64,000 nucleotides of DNA from an uncultured virus (IMG/VR IMGVR_UViG_3300009093_000038). Lineage: Duplodnaviria; Heunggongvirae; Uroviricota; Caudoviricetes. The stretch lies in IMG/VR virus record IMGVR_UViG_3300009093_000038; one strand, given 5' to 3'. Positions 22,442 through 46,159 of this stretch are shown piece after piece (the first letter of the stretch is position 1; every line of letters begins with the position of its first letter). The notes under the pieces are model-generated. The model worked only from the letters and a program-made list of their open reading frames with translations, was not told the DNA's origin and did not search any database. The position numbers and the translations under genes were made by a program.

Positions 22442-22516
22442 TGGCAGCCTGCTCCGGTTATGCTCCGGCTCCTCTCGGGTCAAAGCCGAGTGCGCTACTG
22501 ATTACGCTATCAGGCC
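22442..22516 (-). tRNA. tRNA-Gln(TTG)
   Basis: Cloverleaf; CTCGG-CTTTGAC-CCGAG arm; encoded CCA. Confidence 0.85.
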
Positions 22517-23510: not shown

Positions 23511-23587
23511 TGGTGCCACCCGTGGGATTTGCACCCACTCCCGCCCGGTTAAAAGCCGGATGCTGCATCTATATGAGCTTCGGTGGC
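23511..23587 (-). tRNA. tRNA-Lys(TTT)
   Basis: Anticodon loop CTTTTAA; CCA. Confidence 0.85.
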
Positions 23588-25652: not shown

Positions 25653-27302
25653 TTAGATGTCACCGCGACAGAAGTCAGCGATGAGCGACGGCGTGGAGGC
25701 GTCGAAACCTACCACGTCGAGCGAACCGGAGTCGTTCGGGTCCGCGATGGTGAACGCGTTGGCCACCATGCCGACTACGACCGAGCGCGCAGCGTTGCCG
25801 CTGGTGCTGCGGTACCGGTTGAGTTCCTGAGCCGGGTGGCTCGAACCCGCGTAGGTCTCGCTGTCGGTCGTTACGACGAACGCGCCGACATCAGCCTTGT
25901 TCTCCCGCGCCCAAACGAACGGGAGCGAGCAGTCGGTGCCTCCGCCGTTGATGCTGTCAGTGAACTTCATGGCGTCCACGAGGCTCATATTCTTGCGAAT
26001 CTTCAGCTCGCGGAAGCCCGTGTCGAAGGCCATCACGTGGATGTTGTCTTCGATGTTCAGGTGGACGAGGGCCAGTGCCGTCTCGGCCTCGCAGCACGAG
26101 AGACACGTTCCCGCCATCTTCTGGGTCATCGAGGCGGACACGTCCAGGCCGAACAGCATCGGCTTGCCGACCGGCTGCACGTTACCGAAGCTGGCGTAGA
26201 ACGCCTGCTCCAGCGCGGCCACGACGGATTGATCTGCTTCCCAGGTCAGCTTGCCCTTCTCGCCGTGCCCCTGGTTGTACACCTTGGAGGCGATCAGGAA
26301 CTGGATCGGATGCACGCGGGACTTCTTCAGCCACTCGGTGTCCTTCAGCTTCTGAACCAGCGACCGGGACGCCTGGGACAGCGGCTTCACGAGACCGACC
26401 GCCGTCATCTTGCCCAGGTTACGGATCATGGCCGTCGCAGGCATCTCTGCCAGCAGCGCTTCCCAGACCTTCACGCTGTTTAGATGCTGCGTCGGAATCG
26501 CTTCGCGGGGCAGGTCGTGCTCCGTGATGAGTGTGATCAGGCGCTTCTCGTCACAGCTCTTGGCTTCCTCGAAGGCTTCGATCAGCTTCGGCAGGCTGTC
26601 CTTGACGGACTCGAAGTTGCGGTCCTTCGGCTCCTTGCCGGGCTGCTTGCGGCCCTTGACGGTGCGGTCACCGAGCGCGTCCTTGCCGCCGACCATCCAG
26701 CGGAAGACTGCGTCCTGGACCTTGTCGTCCGTGCGCGGGTGTGCCAGGCGCAGGAGGTCGGCGTGCGACCATCCATCACGCTGCTGGTATTTGACTGCCT
26801 GCATCGCGAGCTGGTCCACCTTCTTGGAAGTGTACCAGTTGCCCACGGCGCGGCAGAGACCACGGCCCCATCCCCGCTGAGAATTCACATACTGAGCGAA
26901 GTGGAACAGGTGAGTGCCGATGCGTGCGACCTTCGGCAGCGACTCCAGGGCGAATTTCCGCGTTTCCTCGTCCTTGTCCGCGCAGGCCATGGCGAGCGCG
27001 AAAAGAGCAGCTTCATTGCGGTAGGCCAGACCCTTGTCAGAAACTTCGACGATCATCTCGACCGTCTTGCGGCCATTGGCCTTCAGACAGCGCTTGATCA
27101 CGTCGTGGTTTTCCTTCAGGAGGTCCTTCTCCTGGATGTAGTAAGTTCCGCCCTCGGAGCCGAGGATCAGGAACCGGCGAAGACGACCCCAGTCATCGAG
27201 CGCCCAGGAGAATCCGCCTGCGGAGTTCTTGACCTGGTTCGAGTCGGGGATCGGTTCAGTCTGCGGCGTGCGCCGCTTATTCGGTACAGAGTACACTGCC
27301 AT
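25653..27302 (-). CDS. rsr: Ro60 / TROVE-domain RNA-binding protein
   Basis: NSAGGF, RFLILGSEGGTYY, GWGRGLCRAV, KYQQRDGWSHADLLRLAHP, TAMIRNLGKMT, DVSASM vWA MIDAS, GGTDC, DVVGFD. Confidence 0.97.
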   Translation of the reverse strand: MAVYSVPNKRRTPQTEPIPDSNQVKNSAGGFSWALDDWGRLRRFLILGSEGGTYYIQEKDLLKENHDVIKRCLKANGRKTVEMIVEVSDKGLAYRNEAALFALAMACADKDEETRKFALESLPKVARIGTHLFHFAQYVNSQRGWGRGLCRAVGNWYTSKKVDQLAMQAVKYQQRDGWSHADLLRLAHPRTDDKVQDAVFRWMVGGKDALGDRTVKGRKQPGKEPKDRNFESVKDSLPKLIEAFEEAKSCDEKRLITLITEHDLPREAIPTQHLNSVKVWEALLAEMPATAMIRNLGKMTAVGLVKPLSQASRSLVQKLKDTEWLKKSRVHPIQFLIASKVYNQGHGEKGKLTWEADQSVVAALEQAFYASFGNVQPVGKPMLFGLDVSASMTQKMAGTCLSCCEAETALALVHLNIEDNIHVMAFDTGFRELKIRKNMSLVDAMKFTDSINGGGTDCSLPFVWARENKADVGAFVVTTDSETYAGSSHPAQELNRYRSTSGNAARSVVVGMVANAFTIADPNDSGSLDVVGFDASTPSLIADFCRGDI

Positions 27303-27448
27303 TTGATACGCACAGGCGCGCCCCAACTAAGGCACGTTACTGGATTTTCACCATTGGCCGCTGCGGGCGACCTGTTTTCTCACTGCATGACGAATAAGTT
27401 GGCGAACCATCCTCCTCCTCACTAAAGGCGGTGGTTAAGTCCGATTCG

Positions 27449-28540: not shown

Positions 28541-28953
28541 TGGTGGAGATGGCGGGAGTTGAACCCGCGTCCTTGGCGCTAATGCCAGCTACCACTACAC
28601 GCTTATCCGGTCTTTAGAGCAGTCTGGACAGTCCCGGATTCTGTTAATCCAAACAGGCTCGGTTCTTCGTCCCGAAAAGAAGCGCCGATTTGTCCGCTCG
28701 GCACCCACACTTGACCTGCTGTTGCGTTCATCCACCGTAGCAGGAGTCCAGCGGTGAACGTCGAAGCATTTAAGCTACGAGGTCGGCTTCAACATAGCCG
28801 AACTGAGCAAGGATCGCGTCAGCTTCGGCCAGGGAAGGAGCCATTTCATTTGCGTTAGCATTTGAGTTTTGATGAGAGGATTAACGTGGCCAACCCATCA
28901 TCCACGGCGTGCGGTTTCAGTCACTAACACTAAGTCGAAACCAGTACATCCCC
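28541..28953 (-). ncRNA. ssrA: tmRNA
   Basis: 5' GGGGATGTACTGGTTTCGAC; 3' GGGTTCAACTCCCGCCATCTCCACCA; G3-U70; tag ORF 28859..28770. Confidence 0.95.
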
Positions 28954-32450: not shown

Positions 32451-32525
32451 TGGTGGAGACAACAGGAGTTGCACCTGAAACCTTCCGCGTGTCGAGCGGG
32501 TGCTCTACTTCAGAGCTATGCCTCC
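32451..32525 (-). tRNA. tRNA-Val(GAC)
   Basis: Loop TCGACAC (C33); CCA. Confidence 0.83.
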
Positions 32526-36483: not shown

Positions 36484-36557
36484 TGGTACCCCGTGACGGA
36501 ATCTCACCGCCTCCATCACTTTGTAAGAGTGAGGCACTGATGTTATGCAAACGGGGC
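36484..36557 (-). tRNA. tRNA-Val(TAC)
   Basis: TCACT-CTTACAA-AGTGA; CCA. Confidence 0.83.
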
Positions 36558-36562
36558 TGAAA

Positions 36563-36693
36563 TGGCGGGGATGATAACCGTTAAATATCGGTCCGTAAAC
36601 GGACAAGGAGGTTCCAACGACTATTTGAGACTGGATTCGAACCAGCGACCTCCCGCTTTTCAGGCGGGCGCTCTACCGCTGAGCTACATCCCC
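36563..36693 (-). ncRNA. tRNA(GAA)-Y RNA chimera
   Basis: Complete cloverleaf with CCA; 56-nt insert after the T arm holding a permuted Ro stem CTTGTCCG-TTTA-CGGACCGA. Confidence 0.8.
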
Positions 36694-40332: not shown

Positions 40333-40407
40333 TGGCAGCCCCGACTGGTTATGCTCCAATGCCTTTCGAGTCAGAGTCGAACGCGCTGCTGATTACGCTA
40401 CGGGGCC
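40333..40407 (-). tRNA. tRNA-Gln(CTG)
   Basis: TTCGA-CTCTGAC-TCGAA; CCA. Confidence 0.87.
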
Positions 40408-41221: not shown

Positions 41222-41303
41222 TGGCGTGAGGGGATGGACTTGAACCACCGACCTCCCGATGCCGGTTAAGGCACCAGGTGCTCTTTCACTGAGCTACCCC
41301 CAC
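41222..41303 (-). tRNA. tRNA-like RNA with extended anticodon stem, identity undetermined
   Basis: Canonical D and T arms and CCA; 9-bp anticodon stem with loop TTAACC. Confidence 0.7.
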
Positions 41304-43702: not shown

Positions 43703-44584
43703 TTAAAGTGTCGCGATGAACGCGTCGATCAAGTCTGATGAATCGGCCACGCATTTCGCTGCCGCTGCTTTCAAGTTGGCGATGTCATCGTCAGATGCAC
43801 CGTCAATCGGCAGTGGCTGGTCGAGACGTGGAGAAATGCGAACATAACCGCCTTTCGTCATCAGTCGTTTCAAAATGTAATCCGGCAGATCGTCGTTGGC
43901 GTCGAACAGCAGGCTCAGTGTTTCCAGGCCGGTGTGGAGCAGACCGCTGTCCACGAGTTTGTCCGCTGAAAATTTGCTCTGGGCCTGGCCGCATCCAACC
44001 GAAAAGATGTTGAGTGATTCGCCGGGCCAGTCACGGATGGCTTCAGCCGCCGCGCACGCTGCCGGATTGTTGGCGACGTTGCCGCCATCCCAGAGTTGTT
44101 TATTGTCCAGGATGAAGGCCGGGAAGTAGGTCTGCGCTGCTGACGTGGCTCGGGATACCTGCCAGAGCGCGTAATCGTCATCCATCACCGGCGACTTGAA
44201 AAAGTAAGGATCGTAGGAGACCAGGTCGAACGCCGGAACGAGCAGAAACTTTTTCAGATCGGAGAGACGGGTGTTGCCCAGGCGCGCCTTGAGGCAGTCT
44301 TCGATCTTGTTTGATCCGTAGCGGGCTTCGAAAATACCGTCGTGTCCAAAAATACGTTCGTGACCGAAGATCGTCGGACCATCCACTGTGAAAAACTCCA
44401 GGGCTTCAGTCGCTGACTTGCCGGAAGCGAGCAAGCAGGCCAGGATGCCGCCGATGGAGGTTCCGGCGAACATATCGAACATGTCGAAGCAAGCTTTGCC
44501 GGTGCGCTTTTCCAGCTCAACCAGGACGGAGCAGGGGATGTAACCCTTCATGCCGCCGCCATCAATGGACAGGATGTTCTTCAT
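43703..44584 (-). CDS. Patatin-like phospholipase
   Basis: DGGGMKG, GTSIG, SAAQTYF, DGG motifs. Confidence 0.92.
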   Translation of the reverse strand: MKNILSIDGGGMKGYIPCSVLVELEKRTGKACFDMFDMFAGTSIGGILACLLASGKSATEALEFFTVDGPTIFGHERIFGHDGIFEARYGSNKIEDCLKARLGNTRLSDLKKFLLVPAFDLVSYDPYFFKSPVMDDDYALWQVSRATSAAQTYFPAFILDNKQLWDGGNVANNPAACAAAEAIRDWPGESLNIFSVGCGQAQSKFSADKLVDSGLLHTGLETLSLLFDANDDLPDYILKRLMTKGGYVRISPRLDQPLPIDGASDDDIANLKAAAAKCVADSSDLIDAFIATL

Positions 44585-44679: not shown

Positions 44680-45033
44680 TTAAGGAACGATATGGAGCAT
44701 CATCGGCGCTCCAGGGTATGCAAATGAGATTGTGTCCGACAGATCGCTGTGGAGGCCGGTTGTCGGGTCCTGGGCGTCCACGTTGCACCAGTAAGTCATT
44801 CCACTTACCAGGTTGCTGACGACCGCATTGGTATCGGTGACCGGAACAATCTGGATGGCCCCGTTGGTGCCGGTGCCTGCCGGATTGTTCGTGTAAATGT
44901 AAACGTTGTACGTGAGTACCGGAAAATCGTCATTCGTGGAGGAGTTCCATTGGACATGGACGCTCTTGGCCATGGCGACGATGGCGGTGATTAGGATCGC
45001 TCCTATAAGCATTGTTTTGCGTAATGTCTTCAT
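44680..45033 (-). CDS. Secreted fibronectin type III domain protein
   Basis: Signal peptide; VQWN, YNVY, VSNLVSGMTYWCNVDA. Confidence 0.75.
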   Translation of the reverse strand: MKTLRKTMLIGAILITAIVAMAKSVHVQWNSSTNDDFPVLTYNVYIYTNNPAGTGTNGAIQIVPVTDTNAVVSNLVSGMTYWCNVDAQDPTTGLHSDLSDTISFAYPGAPMMLHIVP

Positions 45034-45055
45034 GCCCTACATACGCAGTCTGAAA

Positions 45056-45132
45056 TGGGGTGTCGTACGGGTTTCGATCCCGTTCTGCAAGTTTCACAAA
45101 CTTGGGTGCTAAGCCATCACACTCACGACACC
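45056..45132 (-). tRNA. tRNA-His(GTG)
   Basis: G-1/C73 pair; CAAGT-TTGTGAA-ACTTG. Confidence 0.88.
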
Positions 45133-45210
45133 ATTCACCAGGGAGCGAGGCTCGACCTGGGATGGAAATTGTAAGGGTACTGCGCCACGGTAAACATGGC
45201 CGCAGTACCC

Positions 45211-45234
45211 ATTTCAACAAAGAACGTACACCAT
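45211..45234 (-). repeat. 24-bp inverted repeat, copy 2
   Basis: Exact reverse complement of 22035..22058. Confidence 0.85.
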
Positions 45235-45370
45235 TCCTCCGGTCTTTTTACGGACCTTGCCCACATGTATTGCTGGCGTCTTCGGCTTCCCTCGCCTGGA
45301 CACCTTCGCGGTGGTCTTCACCAGATTATCGGCCTGGCTCTCGGCGCTTGCGCGCATAAATTCAAATCCT

Positions 45371-45417
45371 AAAAACGAAAAACCCTGCTATCTCATCGAG
45401 GTAGCAGGGTTTTTCGT
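45371..45417 (-). terminator. Attenuator terminator
   Basis: CCCTGCTA-cctcgatgaga-TAGCAGGG followed by TTTTTCGTTTTT. Confidence 0.85.
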
Positions 45418-45433
45418 GAAATTTCCTCGTGCC

Positions 45434-45580
45434 TTATCCTGCTACCTCCGATTTTGGTTCGAGTGTGCTACGCACGCTAAAGCACATCGTACCGACGCGA
45501 TTCCACCCTTGAATCGGGGCAGAATACTGCGCCCTATCCAAGCTAGGTTTCGCTGACGACGTTATGTGACTTAATTTCAT
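45434..45580 (-). CDS. Putative attenuation leader peptide (48 aa, not in the ORF track)
   Basis: MKLSHITSSAKPSLDRAQYSAPIQGWNRVGTMCFSVRSTLEPKSEVAG; last codons form the antiterminator. Confidence 0.7.
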   Translation of the reverse strand: MKLSHITSSAKPSLDRAQYSAPIQGWNRVGTMCFSVRSTLEPKSEVAG

Positions 45581-45590
45581 TTTCGAGGCC

Positions 45591-45618
45591 ACTCTAAATC
45601 TTTTTTGTTTACAGTCAA
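45591..45618 (-). promoter_or_regulatory. Sigma70-type promoter of the RNA array
   Basis: TTGACT-N16-TAGAGT; -10 box ends 10 nt before the leader ATG. Confidence 0.65.
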
Positions 45619-45637
45619 TAGTTTTCTCAAAAATTCT

Positions 45638-46159
45638 TCATTTATTTTTGTGATGGTCCTTAAAGTGGCTGCTACGCTTGATGATTTCGACTGCGTAGTC
45701 AAAGGCAGCTTGCAGCCCTTTTTCCATAAAGCGCTTACCGATTTCGACTTCAGCCTGCGCTCCTGTGGTAAAACCAGCCGACGCGAGGTTCTGGTTGGTG
45801 GCCAGATTCGTTGCACACAAAAAGTAAACGGACGAGAGCGCGATCTCCTTAGCAACAACACGCGCCGCCAGGTTTACGATGGCATCTCCCAGGTGTTCGA
45901 GCTGGCGCATTTCGATAGGTGACCTCACCTTGGTCGAAGGGACTTTCGGTAGGCGGCTTAATGGTGCCGCAGGTTCTTGCTTGCGCTGAAGGATAGCGGA
46001 CATGCTTTGAGGAACGCAGCGCCAGTCGATTACGTTTCGCTTGCCGTTTTCACTGGGCATGAAAACGGGAGTGAAGCCGAAGATTCTTCCGATCTCGTGC
46101 CACTCGTCACGACTGATCATCAGCTTGAGCTGTTTGCGTGTGATCGTGTCAGGGGTCAT
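45638..46159 (-). CDS. Minimal RNase III-domain protein
   Basis: QLEHLGDAIVNL resembles the RNase III signature; TNQNLA, EVEIG; no dsRBD. Confidence 0.7.
   Translation of the reverse strand: MTPDTITRKQLKLMISRDEWHEIGRIFGFTPVFMPSENGKRNVIDWRCVPQSMSAILQRKQEPAAPLSRLPKVPSTKVRSPIEMRQLEHLGDAIVNLAARVVAKEIALSSVYFLCATNLATNQNLASAGFTTGAQAEVEIGKRFMEKGLQAAFDYAVEIIKRSSHFKDHHKNK

Follow-up and report, generated by a model that had tools for sequence, protein, structure and literature searches.

A putative ribosome-dependent transcription attenuator heading the tRNA and non-coding RNA region of a jumbo phage

The tRNA and non-coding RNA (ncRNA) region of an uncultured jumbo phage is headed by a compact element that we read as a ribosome-dependent transcription attenuator, with a probability of about 50%. 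The element, all features of which lie on the minus strand, has a promoter-proximal short open reading frame (ORF), an intrinsic terminator in front of RNA genes, an antiterminator that competes with this terminator, and an antiterminator strand that, by geometry and modelling, a ribosome that finishes the ORF could mask; a run of codons for a sensed amino acid was not found. This anatomy is conserved, together with its competing pairings and its maintained ORF, in three phage lineages. An earlier note on the sequence had proposed an attenuator of this kind that would sense almost any codon and control an entire tRNA array, and our analysis bears out the conserved anatomy and the ORF, which is open in 3/3 lineages, leaves the sensing of many codons at the level of a suggestion and gives no support to control of the whole array. 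In the proposed mechanism, a conserved promoter would give rise to an mRNA with its AUG at, or a few nucleotides from, the 5′ end, and as the polymerase advances an upstream strand (E) would pair with the core of the terminator 5′ arm (strand F), preventing the hairpin between F and the terminator 3′ arm (strand G). With the terminator avoided, transcription would enter a structured ncRNA and then tRNA-His, tRNA-Gly and tRNA-Ala, whilst a ribosome that sits over the final codons or over the stop would cover E, letting F:G form and transcription end at the T-tract. Prompt and full translation would in this way lead to termination, and slow, stalled or absent translation to read-through; in this scheme we infer where transcription starts, that the leader is translated, in which direction the switch works and which physiological signal it answers.

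The source of the window (the whole stretch of 64,000 nucleotides that was analysed) is an uncultured large phage from soil. Metagenomes with the window DNA came from soil and rhizosphere, a blastn search found no match to the window among GenBank phages, and the proteins encoded include Ro60/TROVE, DNA polymerase A, a DnaB-like helicase, RecA and a phage metallopeptidase. ARAGORN called 31 genes in the window (30 tRNAs and a tmRNA), and further tRNA matches were obtained from Rfam. A metagenome contig of 151 kb carries a stretch identical to the window, and an IMG/VR contig of 238 kb carries a related one. Taken together, all scans yielded three lineages, namely the window (with L009 identical to it), L001, and L010/L011, the last two being nearly identical to each other. 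Scans with DNA patterns returned 2, 1, 5 and 5 loci, and each time the L001 contig, which was also retrieved as L003, L016, L023 and L025, was the only related one; a peptide profile run on viral contigs pointed to the same contig (1 of 41 stretches). The metagenome scan yielded 6 of 103 stretches, among them L009, equal to the window, and L010/L011 as one further lineage. Matches with nothing in common beyond the pattern itself were dropped (L002, L015, L017-L019, L020-L022 and L024, and from the metagenomes L012-L014). Genome contigs gave no match, nor was any of 50 stretches from them related; the same was true of the 11 stretches from viral contigs carrying the 173-aa protein that neighbours the element, and a ligase query gave five loci at 25–34% identity, none with tRNAs nearby. 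In all three lineages the small ORF and its terminator lie between a gene for an NAD-dependent ligase and a structured RNA of 130–190 nt, behind which come tRNA-His, tRNA-Gly and tRNA-Ala in this order, with tRNA-His absent in L001. The features in the window are, in the order of transcription:

45621..45630, minus strand: A-rich block TTGAGAAAAC, adjoining the −35 box on its upstream side, conserved between the window and L010
45591..45618, minus strand: sigma-70-like promoter TTGACT-16-TAGAGT, found by consensus scan
45434..45580, minus strand: leader ORF of 48 codons plus TAA, with its ATG at 45580 and its stop at 45436-45434
45503..45522, minus strand: hairpin H1, CUGCCC(C) GAUUCA (A)GGGUGG, a nucleotide-invariant block
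45464..45486, minus strand: hairpin H2, stem UGUGCU/AGCACA of 6 pairs, unchanged in 3/3 lineages, with a variable 11-nt loop at 45480..45470
45455..45461, minus strand: invariant linker CGAACCA, from H2 to the antiterminator strand
45438..45448, minus strand: strand E, GAGGTAGCAGG, the 5′ strand of the antiterminator and codons 45-48 of the leader, found by repeat search
45427..45433, minus strand: spacer segment GGCACGA, adjoining the stop codon on its 3′ side and complementary to the loop of H2
45398..45417, minus strand: terminator 5′ arm with core strand F, CCTGCTACCTC (45408..45398), which can pair with E or with the 3′ arm
45371..45394, minus strand: terminator 3′ arm (strand G, GAGATAGCAGGG) and T-tract TTTTTCGTTTTT, found by repeat search
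45166..45355, minus strand: structured ncRNA, its first covarying hairpin ~16-25 nt after the T-tract (RNAalifold)
45056..45131, minus strand: tRNA-His(GUG), first tRNA of the array (ARAGORN, Rfam), also first in L010, L011 and L009

The terminator has arms of 20 nt (45417..45398 and 45394..45375) that are 95% complementary, enclose a 3-nt loop and are followed by TTTTTCGTTTTT, with an energy of −21.2 kcal/mol, which agrees with the intrinsic terminator described earlier; its copy in L010 was likewise called, with 13 pairs. Strand E (45448..45438) repeats the terminator 3′ arm in direct orientation, and GAGGTAGCAGG and CCTGCTACCTC, separated by 29 nt, are 100% complementary over 11 nt. The perfect 11-bp pairing that had been claimed was thus recovered, between 45448..45438 and 45408..45398, and it is kept in 3/3 lineages, while by hand arithmetic the chance expectation of such an 11-mer complement within ~100 nt is ~2 × 10−5. 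E, F and G are nucleotide-invariant in the three lineages, the E-F spacer and the terminator loop vary, and in each of them the stop codon sits right at E's 3′ edge. In the window, L001 and L010, respectively, the E:F helix has a length of 11, 13 and 9 bp and an energy of −20.6, −24.3 and −15.4 kcal/mol, against −21.2, −14.2 and −21.5 kcal/mol for the terminator. The RNAalifold consensus picks E:F, which is also the minimum free energy fold of the nascent transcript up to F in all three lineages. No covariation was found in E:F or F:G across the three lineages; since the pairs never vary, the two stems are backed by conservation rather than by covariation. Strong terminators elsewhere in the window were too few to provide a control set for three-part arrangements of this type.

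The effect of a ribosome was modelled on the RNA as it stands at the moment of termination, with the U-tract left out and a footprint of 30 nt. In L001, which defaults to the antiterminator, E:F has a probability of 1.00 as long as the A site has not arrived at codon 42-43 and of 0.00 thereafter. In the window it is 0.10 without a ribosome, because E then pairs upstream, and rises to 0.81–0.89 for stalls at codons 2-7 and to 0.64–0.98 for stalls at codons 34-40, before dropping to 0.00 from codon 41 onward. Geometry and modelling therefore agree in L001 and the window that a ribosome completing the ORF would mask E. In L010 the terminator always wins (probability of E:F ≤ 0.05), and E:F never prevails at equilibrium. 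Within these models the classical logic would fit two lineages at equilibrium, and the third (L010) would need kinetic trapping: given a dominant terminator in L010 and an antiterminator by default in L001, the set-points are not alike, and a kinetic argument has to be invoked.

The promoter reported in the earlier note, TTGACT-N16-TAGAGT, is present at 45618..45591 and agrees with the consensus at 9 of 12 positions, a match that on its own is at chance level (3 sites per 10 kb vs 3.5 ± 1.9 in shuffled sequence). The −10 box of L010 is identical to that of the window, and L001 has TTGTCA-17-TACGGT as read by eye; both promoters fall below the threshold of the consensus scan. Variant contigs from runs X2, X4 and X5 part from the window at 45632-45638, just upstream of the TTGAGAAAAC block: the X4 contig has 231 other letters in place of 45638-45664, and the X2 and X5 contigs diverge at 45632 and 45638. 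As these contigs break just upstream of the promoter block, the conserved module starts with the promoter, and the TTGAGAAAAC block marks its left edge. A 173-aa ORF further upstream (45638-46159) belongs to the window lineage only and is absent from L001 and L010. Transcription out of the upstream ligase gene may also enter the leader element. As an observation in its own right, positions 45632-45664, directly 5′ of the promoter block, form a mosaic breakpoint.

The leader ORF was found at 45580..45434 as a near-leaderless frame of 48 codons, as had been claimed, with its ATG 10 nt past the −10 box and no Shine-Dalgarno sequence. It is open in 3/3 lineages (48, 49 and 48 codons) with a shared stop position (TAA, TAG and TAA), and an in-frame start codon lies 7–16 nt after the −10 box in each of them; the offset of the ATG is equal in the window and L010, and in L001 this ATG has become ATC, with an in-frame ATG two codons later. 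In nucleotide alignments, several +1/−1 indels within the ORF are compensated within 2–12 nt, restoring the frame. When the diverged 5′ part was shuffled, the chance that an ATG-initiated ORF from the 5′ end joins the conserved frame was 0.061, 0.046 and 0.065 per lineage, which puts the joint chance of a kept ORF at ~10−3 in order of magnitude, for lineages that are not fully independent. The leaderless start is itself a prediction, and translation of the leader would hinge on it. Separately, we observed that three of 43 long ORFs have GGAG, GAGG or AGGA in the 20 nt before the start of the longest ORF; either the true starts lie elsewhere or phage and host rarely use Shine-Dalgarno motifs, and their scarcity bears on the plausibility of a leaderless leader ORF.

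The peptide itself shows no trace of purifying selection, with neither a synonymous excess in the three lineages nor codon adaptation. Differences are spread over codon positions 1, 2 and 3 as 19/20/17, 16/14/14 and 13/13/14, and pS (0.32–0.42) is close to pN (0.27–0.39), giving a pN/pS of ~1. A CAI-like index of 0.505 for the leader compares with 0.715 ± 0.079 for the genes of the phage and 0.479 for random codons, and corresponds to the 0.8th percentile among windows of the phage's own genes. The residues common to the leader peptides (IQGW, CF, RST, EP and EVAG) fall in nucleotide-invariant blocks, inside which no synonymous change was seen. Neither Pfam nor PHROGs contained a family for the peptide. 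Among 1.84 billion protein representatives there was no homologue except L001's own ORF, which was the only full-length match (P0001) of seven, P0006 being a repeat protein; another protein database likewise gave no homologue. A variant that is 97% identical (X4) carries a single change in the leader, a synonymous AAA>AAG at 45452, and leaves E, F and G intact; the contigs X2, X3 and X5 span the element only partly. An open frame combined with a pN/pS of ~1 and random-like codon usage leads us to suggest that selection looks to act on translation rather than on the peptide. The same data weigh on the alternative of an ordinary 48-aa phage protein gene with its own terminator, in which the E copy would be left over from a duplication. 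The conserved length of the ORF and the residues held in common are what such a gene would offer in its favour; however, these residues are invariant nucleotide blocks without synonymous change, differences are even across codon positions, adaptation to the phage's codon usage and homologues beyond L001 are lacking, and the three-way conservation of E, F and G would be left unexplained, so that we consider it very improbable.

A frame that varies freely and nevertheless stays open is what characterizes a regulatory leader ORF; a non-coding RNA whose frame is open by luck would come close to the same picture, as a pN/pS of ~1 and random-like codon usage are expected of non-coding RNA too. For this reason we keep, as unlikely but deserving of serious consideration, the reading of the element as an untranslated independent small RNA of ~205 nt, equipped with a promoter and a terminator of its own and carrying the ORF by accident, in which the alternative between E:F and F:G and the contact made by H2 would be the fold of the small RNA or a switch set by a factor acting in trans. 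The strong predicted fold of the leader (z scores of −4.55, −4.06 and −3.88) is consistent with it, as are the long nucleotide-invariant blocks, the covariation of the H2 loop with the spacer described below, the lack of a protein family or homologue for the peptide and a neighbourhood rich in ncRNAs. It is countered by the ORF and its 5′-proximal in-frame start, kept in 3/3 lineages despite divergence and compensated indels where chance would allow 0.046–0.065 per lineage, and by the stop codon placed at the exact 3′ edge of E in all of them. Nor does the next RNA gene have a promoter-like site of its own: a consensus scan of the window, L010 and L001 found none from the terminator to the next RNA genes or tRNA-His.

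Within the leader, H1 and H2 are conserved, yet no single helix equivalent to the classical 1:2 pairing is, and E of the window pairs upstream at equilibrium. The loop of H2 can form a duplex with the spacer behind the stop codon, at −8.9, −10.8 and −10.1 kcal/mol in the three lineages (P = 0.074, 0.013 and 0.033 against shuffles), and in a 3 × 3 cross table each loop pairs best with the spacer of its own lineage, that is, the contact covaries. Judged from complementarity, the contact could be a kissing interaction that stabilizes the antiterminator, or part of an anti-antiterminator. It could also belong to a switch made of RNA alone, either riboswitch-like or sensing tRNA in the manner of a T-box, in which H1, H2 and the kissing contact would select E:F or F:G by binding a ligand or another RNA, with no ribosome taking part. 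The invariant blocks H1, H2 and CGAACCA, which have no coding explanation, the covarying complement of tertiary type and the position upstream of tRNA genes would fit such a switch, whereas the ORF maintained in 3/3 lineages would not. Moreover, Rfam returned no riboswitch or T-box match for 45000-46000 even at E ≤ 10, the GGGUGG block lies ~90 nt upstream of the terminator, unlike the T-box bulge, which adjoins it, and no candidate for a specifier or a ligand pocket was found, all of which makes an RNA-only switch distinctly unlikely. Readings of GAUUCAAGGGUGG and CGAACCA as a T-arm, a tRNA-like structure or a T-box had been made by eye and were dropped, Rfam giving no support.

Returning to the attenuator, we assessed what its leader would be able to sense. 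In the leader ORF of the window 40 different codons are used and none of the 20 amino acids is missing, exactly as counted in the earlier note, whose hand-calculated expectation of about 33 codons matches the 33.4 ± 2.3 obtained for uniform usage (probability of at least 40, 0.0025). Of 1538 windows of 48 codons from the phage's own long ORFs, none reached 40 (mean 28.8 ± 3.1). In frame, the window, L001 and L010 have 40, 38 and 41 distinct codons vs 33.4–34.1 (± 2.2–2.3) in composition-preserving shuffles (P = 0.0024, 0.068 and 0.0004), and the other two frames of the leader hold 32–36 distinct triplets. The 17 invariant codon columns are all mutually different, and a position-based test conditional on them gave P = 0.011, 0.13 and 0.0026. 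All 20 amino acids occur in each of the three peptides, compared with 1.7% of 48-residue windows in the phage's own proteins; as 18 of the 20 lie in conserved columns, this is essentially a single observation. No regulatory codon run was found, and no codon of the window leader is used more than three times. The codon excess is real and frame-specific, although its value for the window is post hoc, its repeat in L010 shares ancestry and its support in L001 is weak, and we regard it as suggestive. Thus, of what the earlier note expected to recur in related phages, the E:F complementarity did so in all three lineages and the codon excess in L010, and the proposed sensor of nearly all codons keeps a frame-specific, repeated excess on one side and a weak L001 and a post hoc window value on the other. 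For a general sensor of translation progress codon diversity is dispensable, though it would broaden the sensing range. That the leader is a deliberately codon-diverse "test message", diverse in each lineage and covering ~40 of 61 codons, on which slowing at almost any codon leads to read-through, is rather doubtful. If it were so, slowing caused by host tRNA cleavage, starvation or a shortage of ribosomes could trigger read-through, switching on an RNA-maintenance module in a jumbo phage that encodes Ro60, tmRNA and tRNAs. It is known that tRNA-cleaving defences can be overcome by phage tRNAs, which rescue the infection.

Read-through would first produce a structured ncRNA, located between the leader terminator and tRNA-His and found in L001 at about 1583-1745 and in L010 at about 836-1000. 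Its opening hairpin is formed by GCGC/GCGC, CUCC/GGAG and CCCC/GGGG in the three lineages, its closing helix GAGAGC/GUUCUU and the segment GUUCUUUGUUGAAA are invariant, and an anticodon-like arm with the loop CCGAUAA shows compensatory change (CCAGG/UCUGG vs CUGCG/UGCAG); in total, RNAalifold found compensatory changes in 11 of 46 predicted pairs. No Rfam family matched the ncRNA. It ends in a terminator-like hairpin (T2, ~45210..45175) followed by a U-rich stretch. Because T2 follows the ncRNA and because genes on the opposite strand interrupt the array (22 of 61 ORFs of at least 110 aa lie on the plus strand), control of the whole 23-kb array, as claimed in the earlier note, is not supported.

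Leader-peptide attenuation is textbook knowledge for amino-acid operons, with trpL, hisL, thrL, leuL, pheL and ilv as the enterobacterial examples. Like the trp, his and thr attenuators, the phage element has a promoter-proximal short ORF, an intrinsic terminator, an antiterminator that shares the terminator 5′ arm, and a stop codon placed such that a terminating ribosome would cover the antiterminator strand. Unlike them, its leader has 20 amino acids and 40 codons in place of a regulatory codon run, it would act on an ncRNA and tRNAs rather than on biosynthetic enzymes, its start is predicted to be leaderless, and it has a loop-spacer contact instead of a clear conserved 1:2 pause hairpin. 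The only Rfam model touching the element was RF00506 (Thr_leader), at 33.1 bits against a gathering threshold of 55 and mostly over the terminator, so that the element is not a member. In Sinorhizobium, the terminated attenuator transcript (rnTrpL/peTrpL) is said to be a stable RNA with a possible function; the terminated phage leader, at ~205 nt and with a strongly structured predicted fold, resembles it, and activity in trans is a property of the Sinorhizobium system of which the phage leader gives no sign.

In function, the element comes closest to the uORF-terminator of whiB7, to toiL and to the mycobacterial leaderless short ORFs. In the mycobacterial whiB7 5′ leader, a uORF precedes a terminator and stalling is believed to give antitermination; activation follows the loss of many amino-acid, tRNA and tRNA-synthetase functions, making it a broad sensor of translation stress, and the uORF, which varies between species and is alanine-enriched, controls a transcription factor (PMC10274678). 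The phage element likewise has a uORF and a terminator and a sequence that varies between lineages; it differs in having no enrichment and in an output of ncRNA and tRNA genes, and no sequence relation was found. The toiL leader of E. coli topAI-yjhQ is described as a "multipurpose" uORF on which stalls at different positions alter downstream RNA structure, acting through occlusion of the ribosome-binding site and Rho-dependent termination in response to antibiotics (PMC12121999), whereas the phage terminator is intrinsic and has a direct antiterminator. Mycobacterial polycysteine leaderless short ORFs are reported to be regulatory first cistrons that are Cys-enriched and control operon mRNAs (10.1101/834739). 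The phage leader shares with actinobacterial leaderless attenuators a short regulatory ORF as first cistron of a leaderless transcript, as predicted here, and departs from the polycysteine ORFs in that it is not enriched for one amino acid and its output is not an operon mRNA. The literature that we searched contained no report of leader-peptide attenuation ahead of tRNA or ncRNA genes, be they of phages or not, or in a phage at all; the phage element would then represent a familiar type of regulation at an unusual site. The timing and dosing of phage tRNA arrays could be explained in a simple way by a sensor that acts in cis and responds to translation performance. If the reading is right, an attenuator need not carry codon runs, and the maintenance of an ORF without selection on its peptide may be a general signature by which such elements can be found.

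Several further features of the tRNA/tmRNA region were observed alongside. A 557-aa protein at 25656-27326 (minus strand) has TROVE and Ro60 vWA domains (E = 2 × 10−46 and 8 × 10−53) and is a phage-encoded Ro60/Rsr orthologue inside this region; with Ro60 encoded by the phage, a Y-RNA-like role for the ncRNA is a lead only. The tmRNA at 28541-28953 (minus strand, 133.8 bits in Rfam) specifies an unusually long tag peptide, ANANEMAPSLAEADAILAQFGYVEADLVA. At 41222-41303 (minus strand) lies a tRNA with the anticodon UUA, of the ochre-suppressor type (Rfam tRNA, 44.3 bits); with 52 of 95 aligned columns shared with the neighbouring tRNA-Tyr, it is no recent copy of that gene, and among the 43 long ORFs 17 still end in TAA. 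Past its stop, the leader frame continues without interruption for another 23, 31 and 51 codons in the three lineages, across the terminator, and, speculatively, suppression of the stop would hence carry ribosomes across the terminator. Six tRNA matches on the minus strand were found by Rfam with ARAGORN silent (22445-22516, 23514-23587, 32454-32525, 36487-36557, 36629-36687 and 40336-40407; 34.9–54.1 bits, one covering model positions 7-64 alone), and these may be degenerate or tRNA-like RNAs. Finally, a patatin-like phospholipase (43703-44584, minus strand, E = 3 × 10−25) lies among tRNA-His, tRNA-Gly and tRNA-Ala, and a small fn3-like ORF (44680-45033, minus strand) is interleaved with the same three tRNAs.
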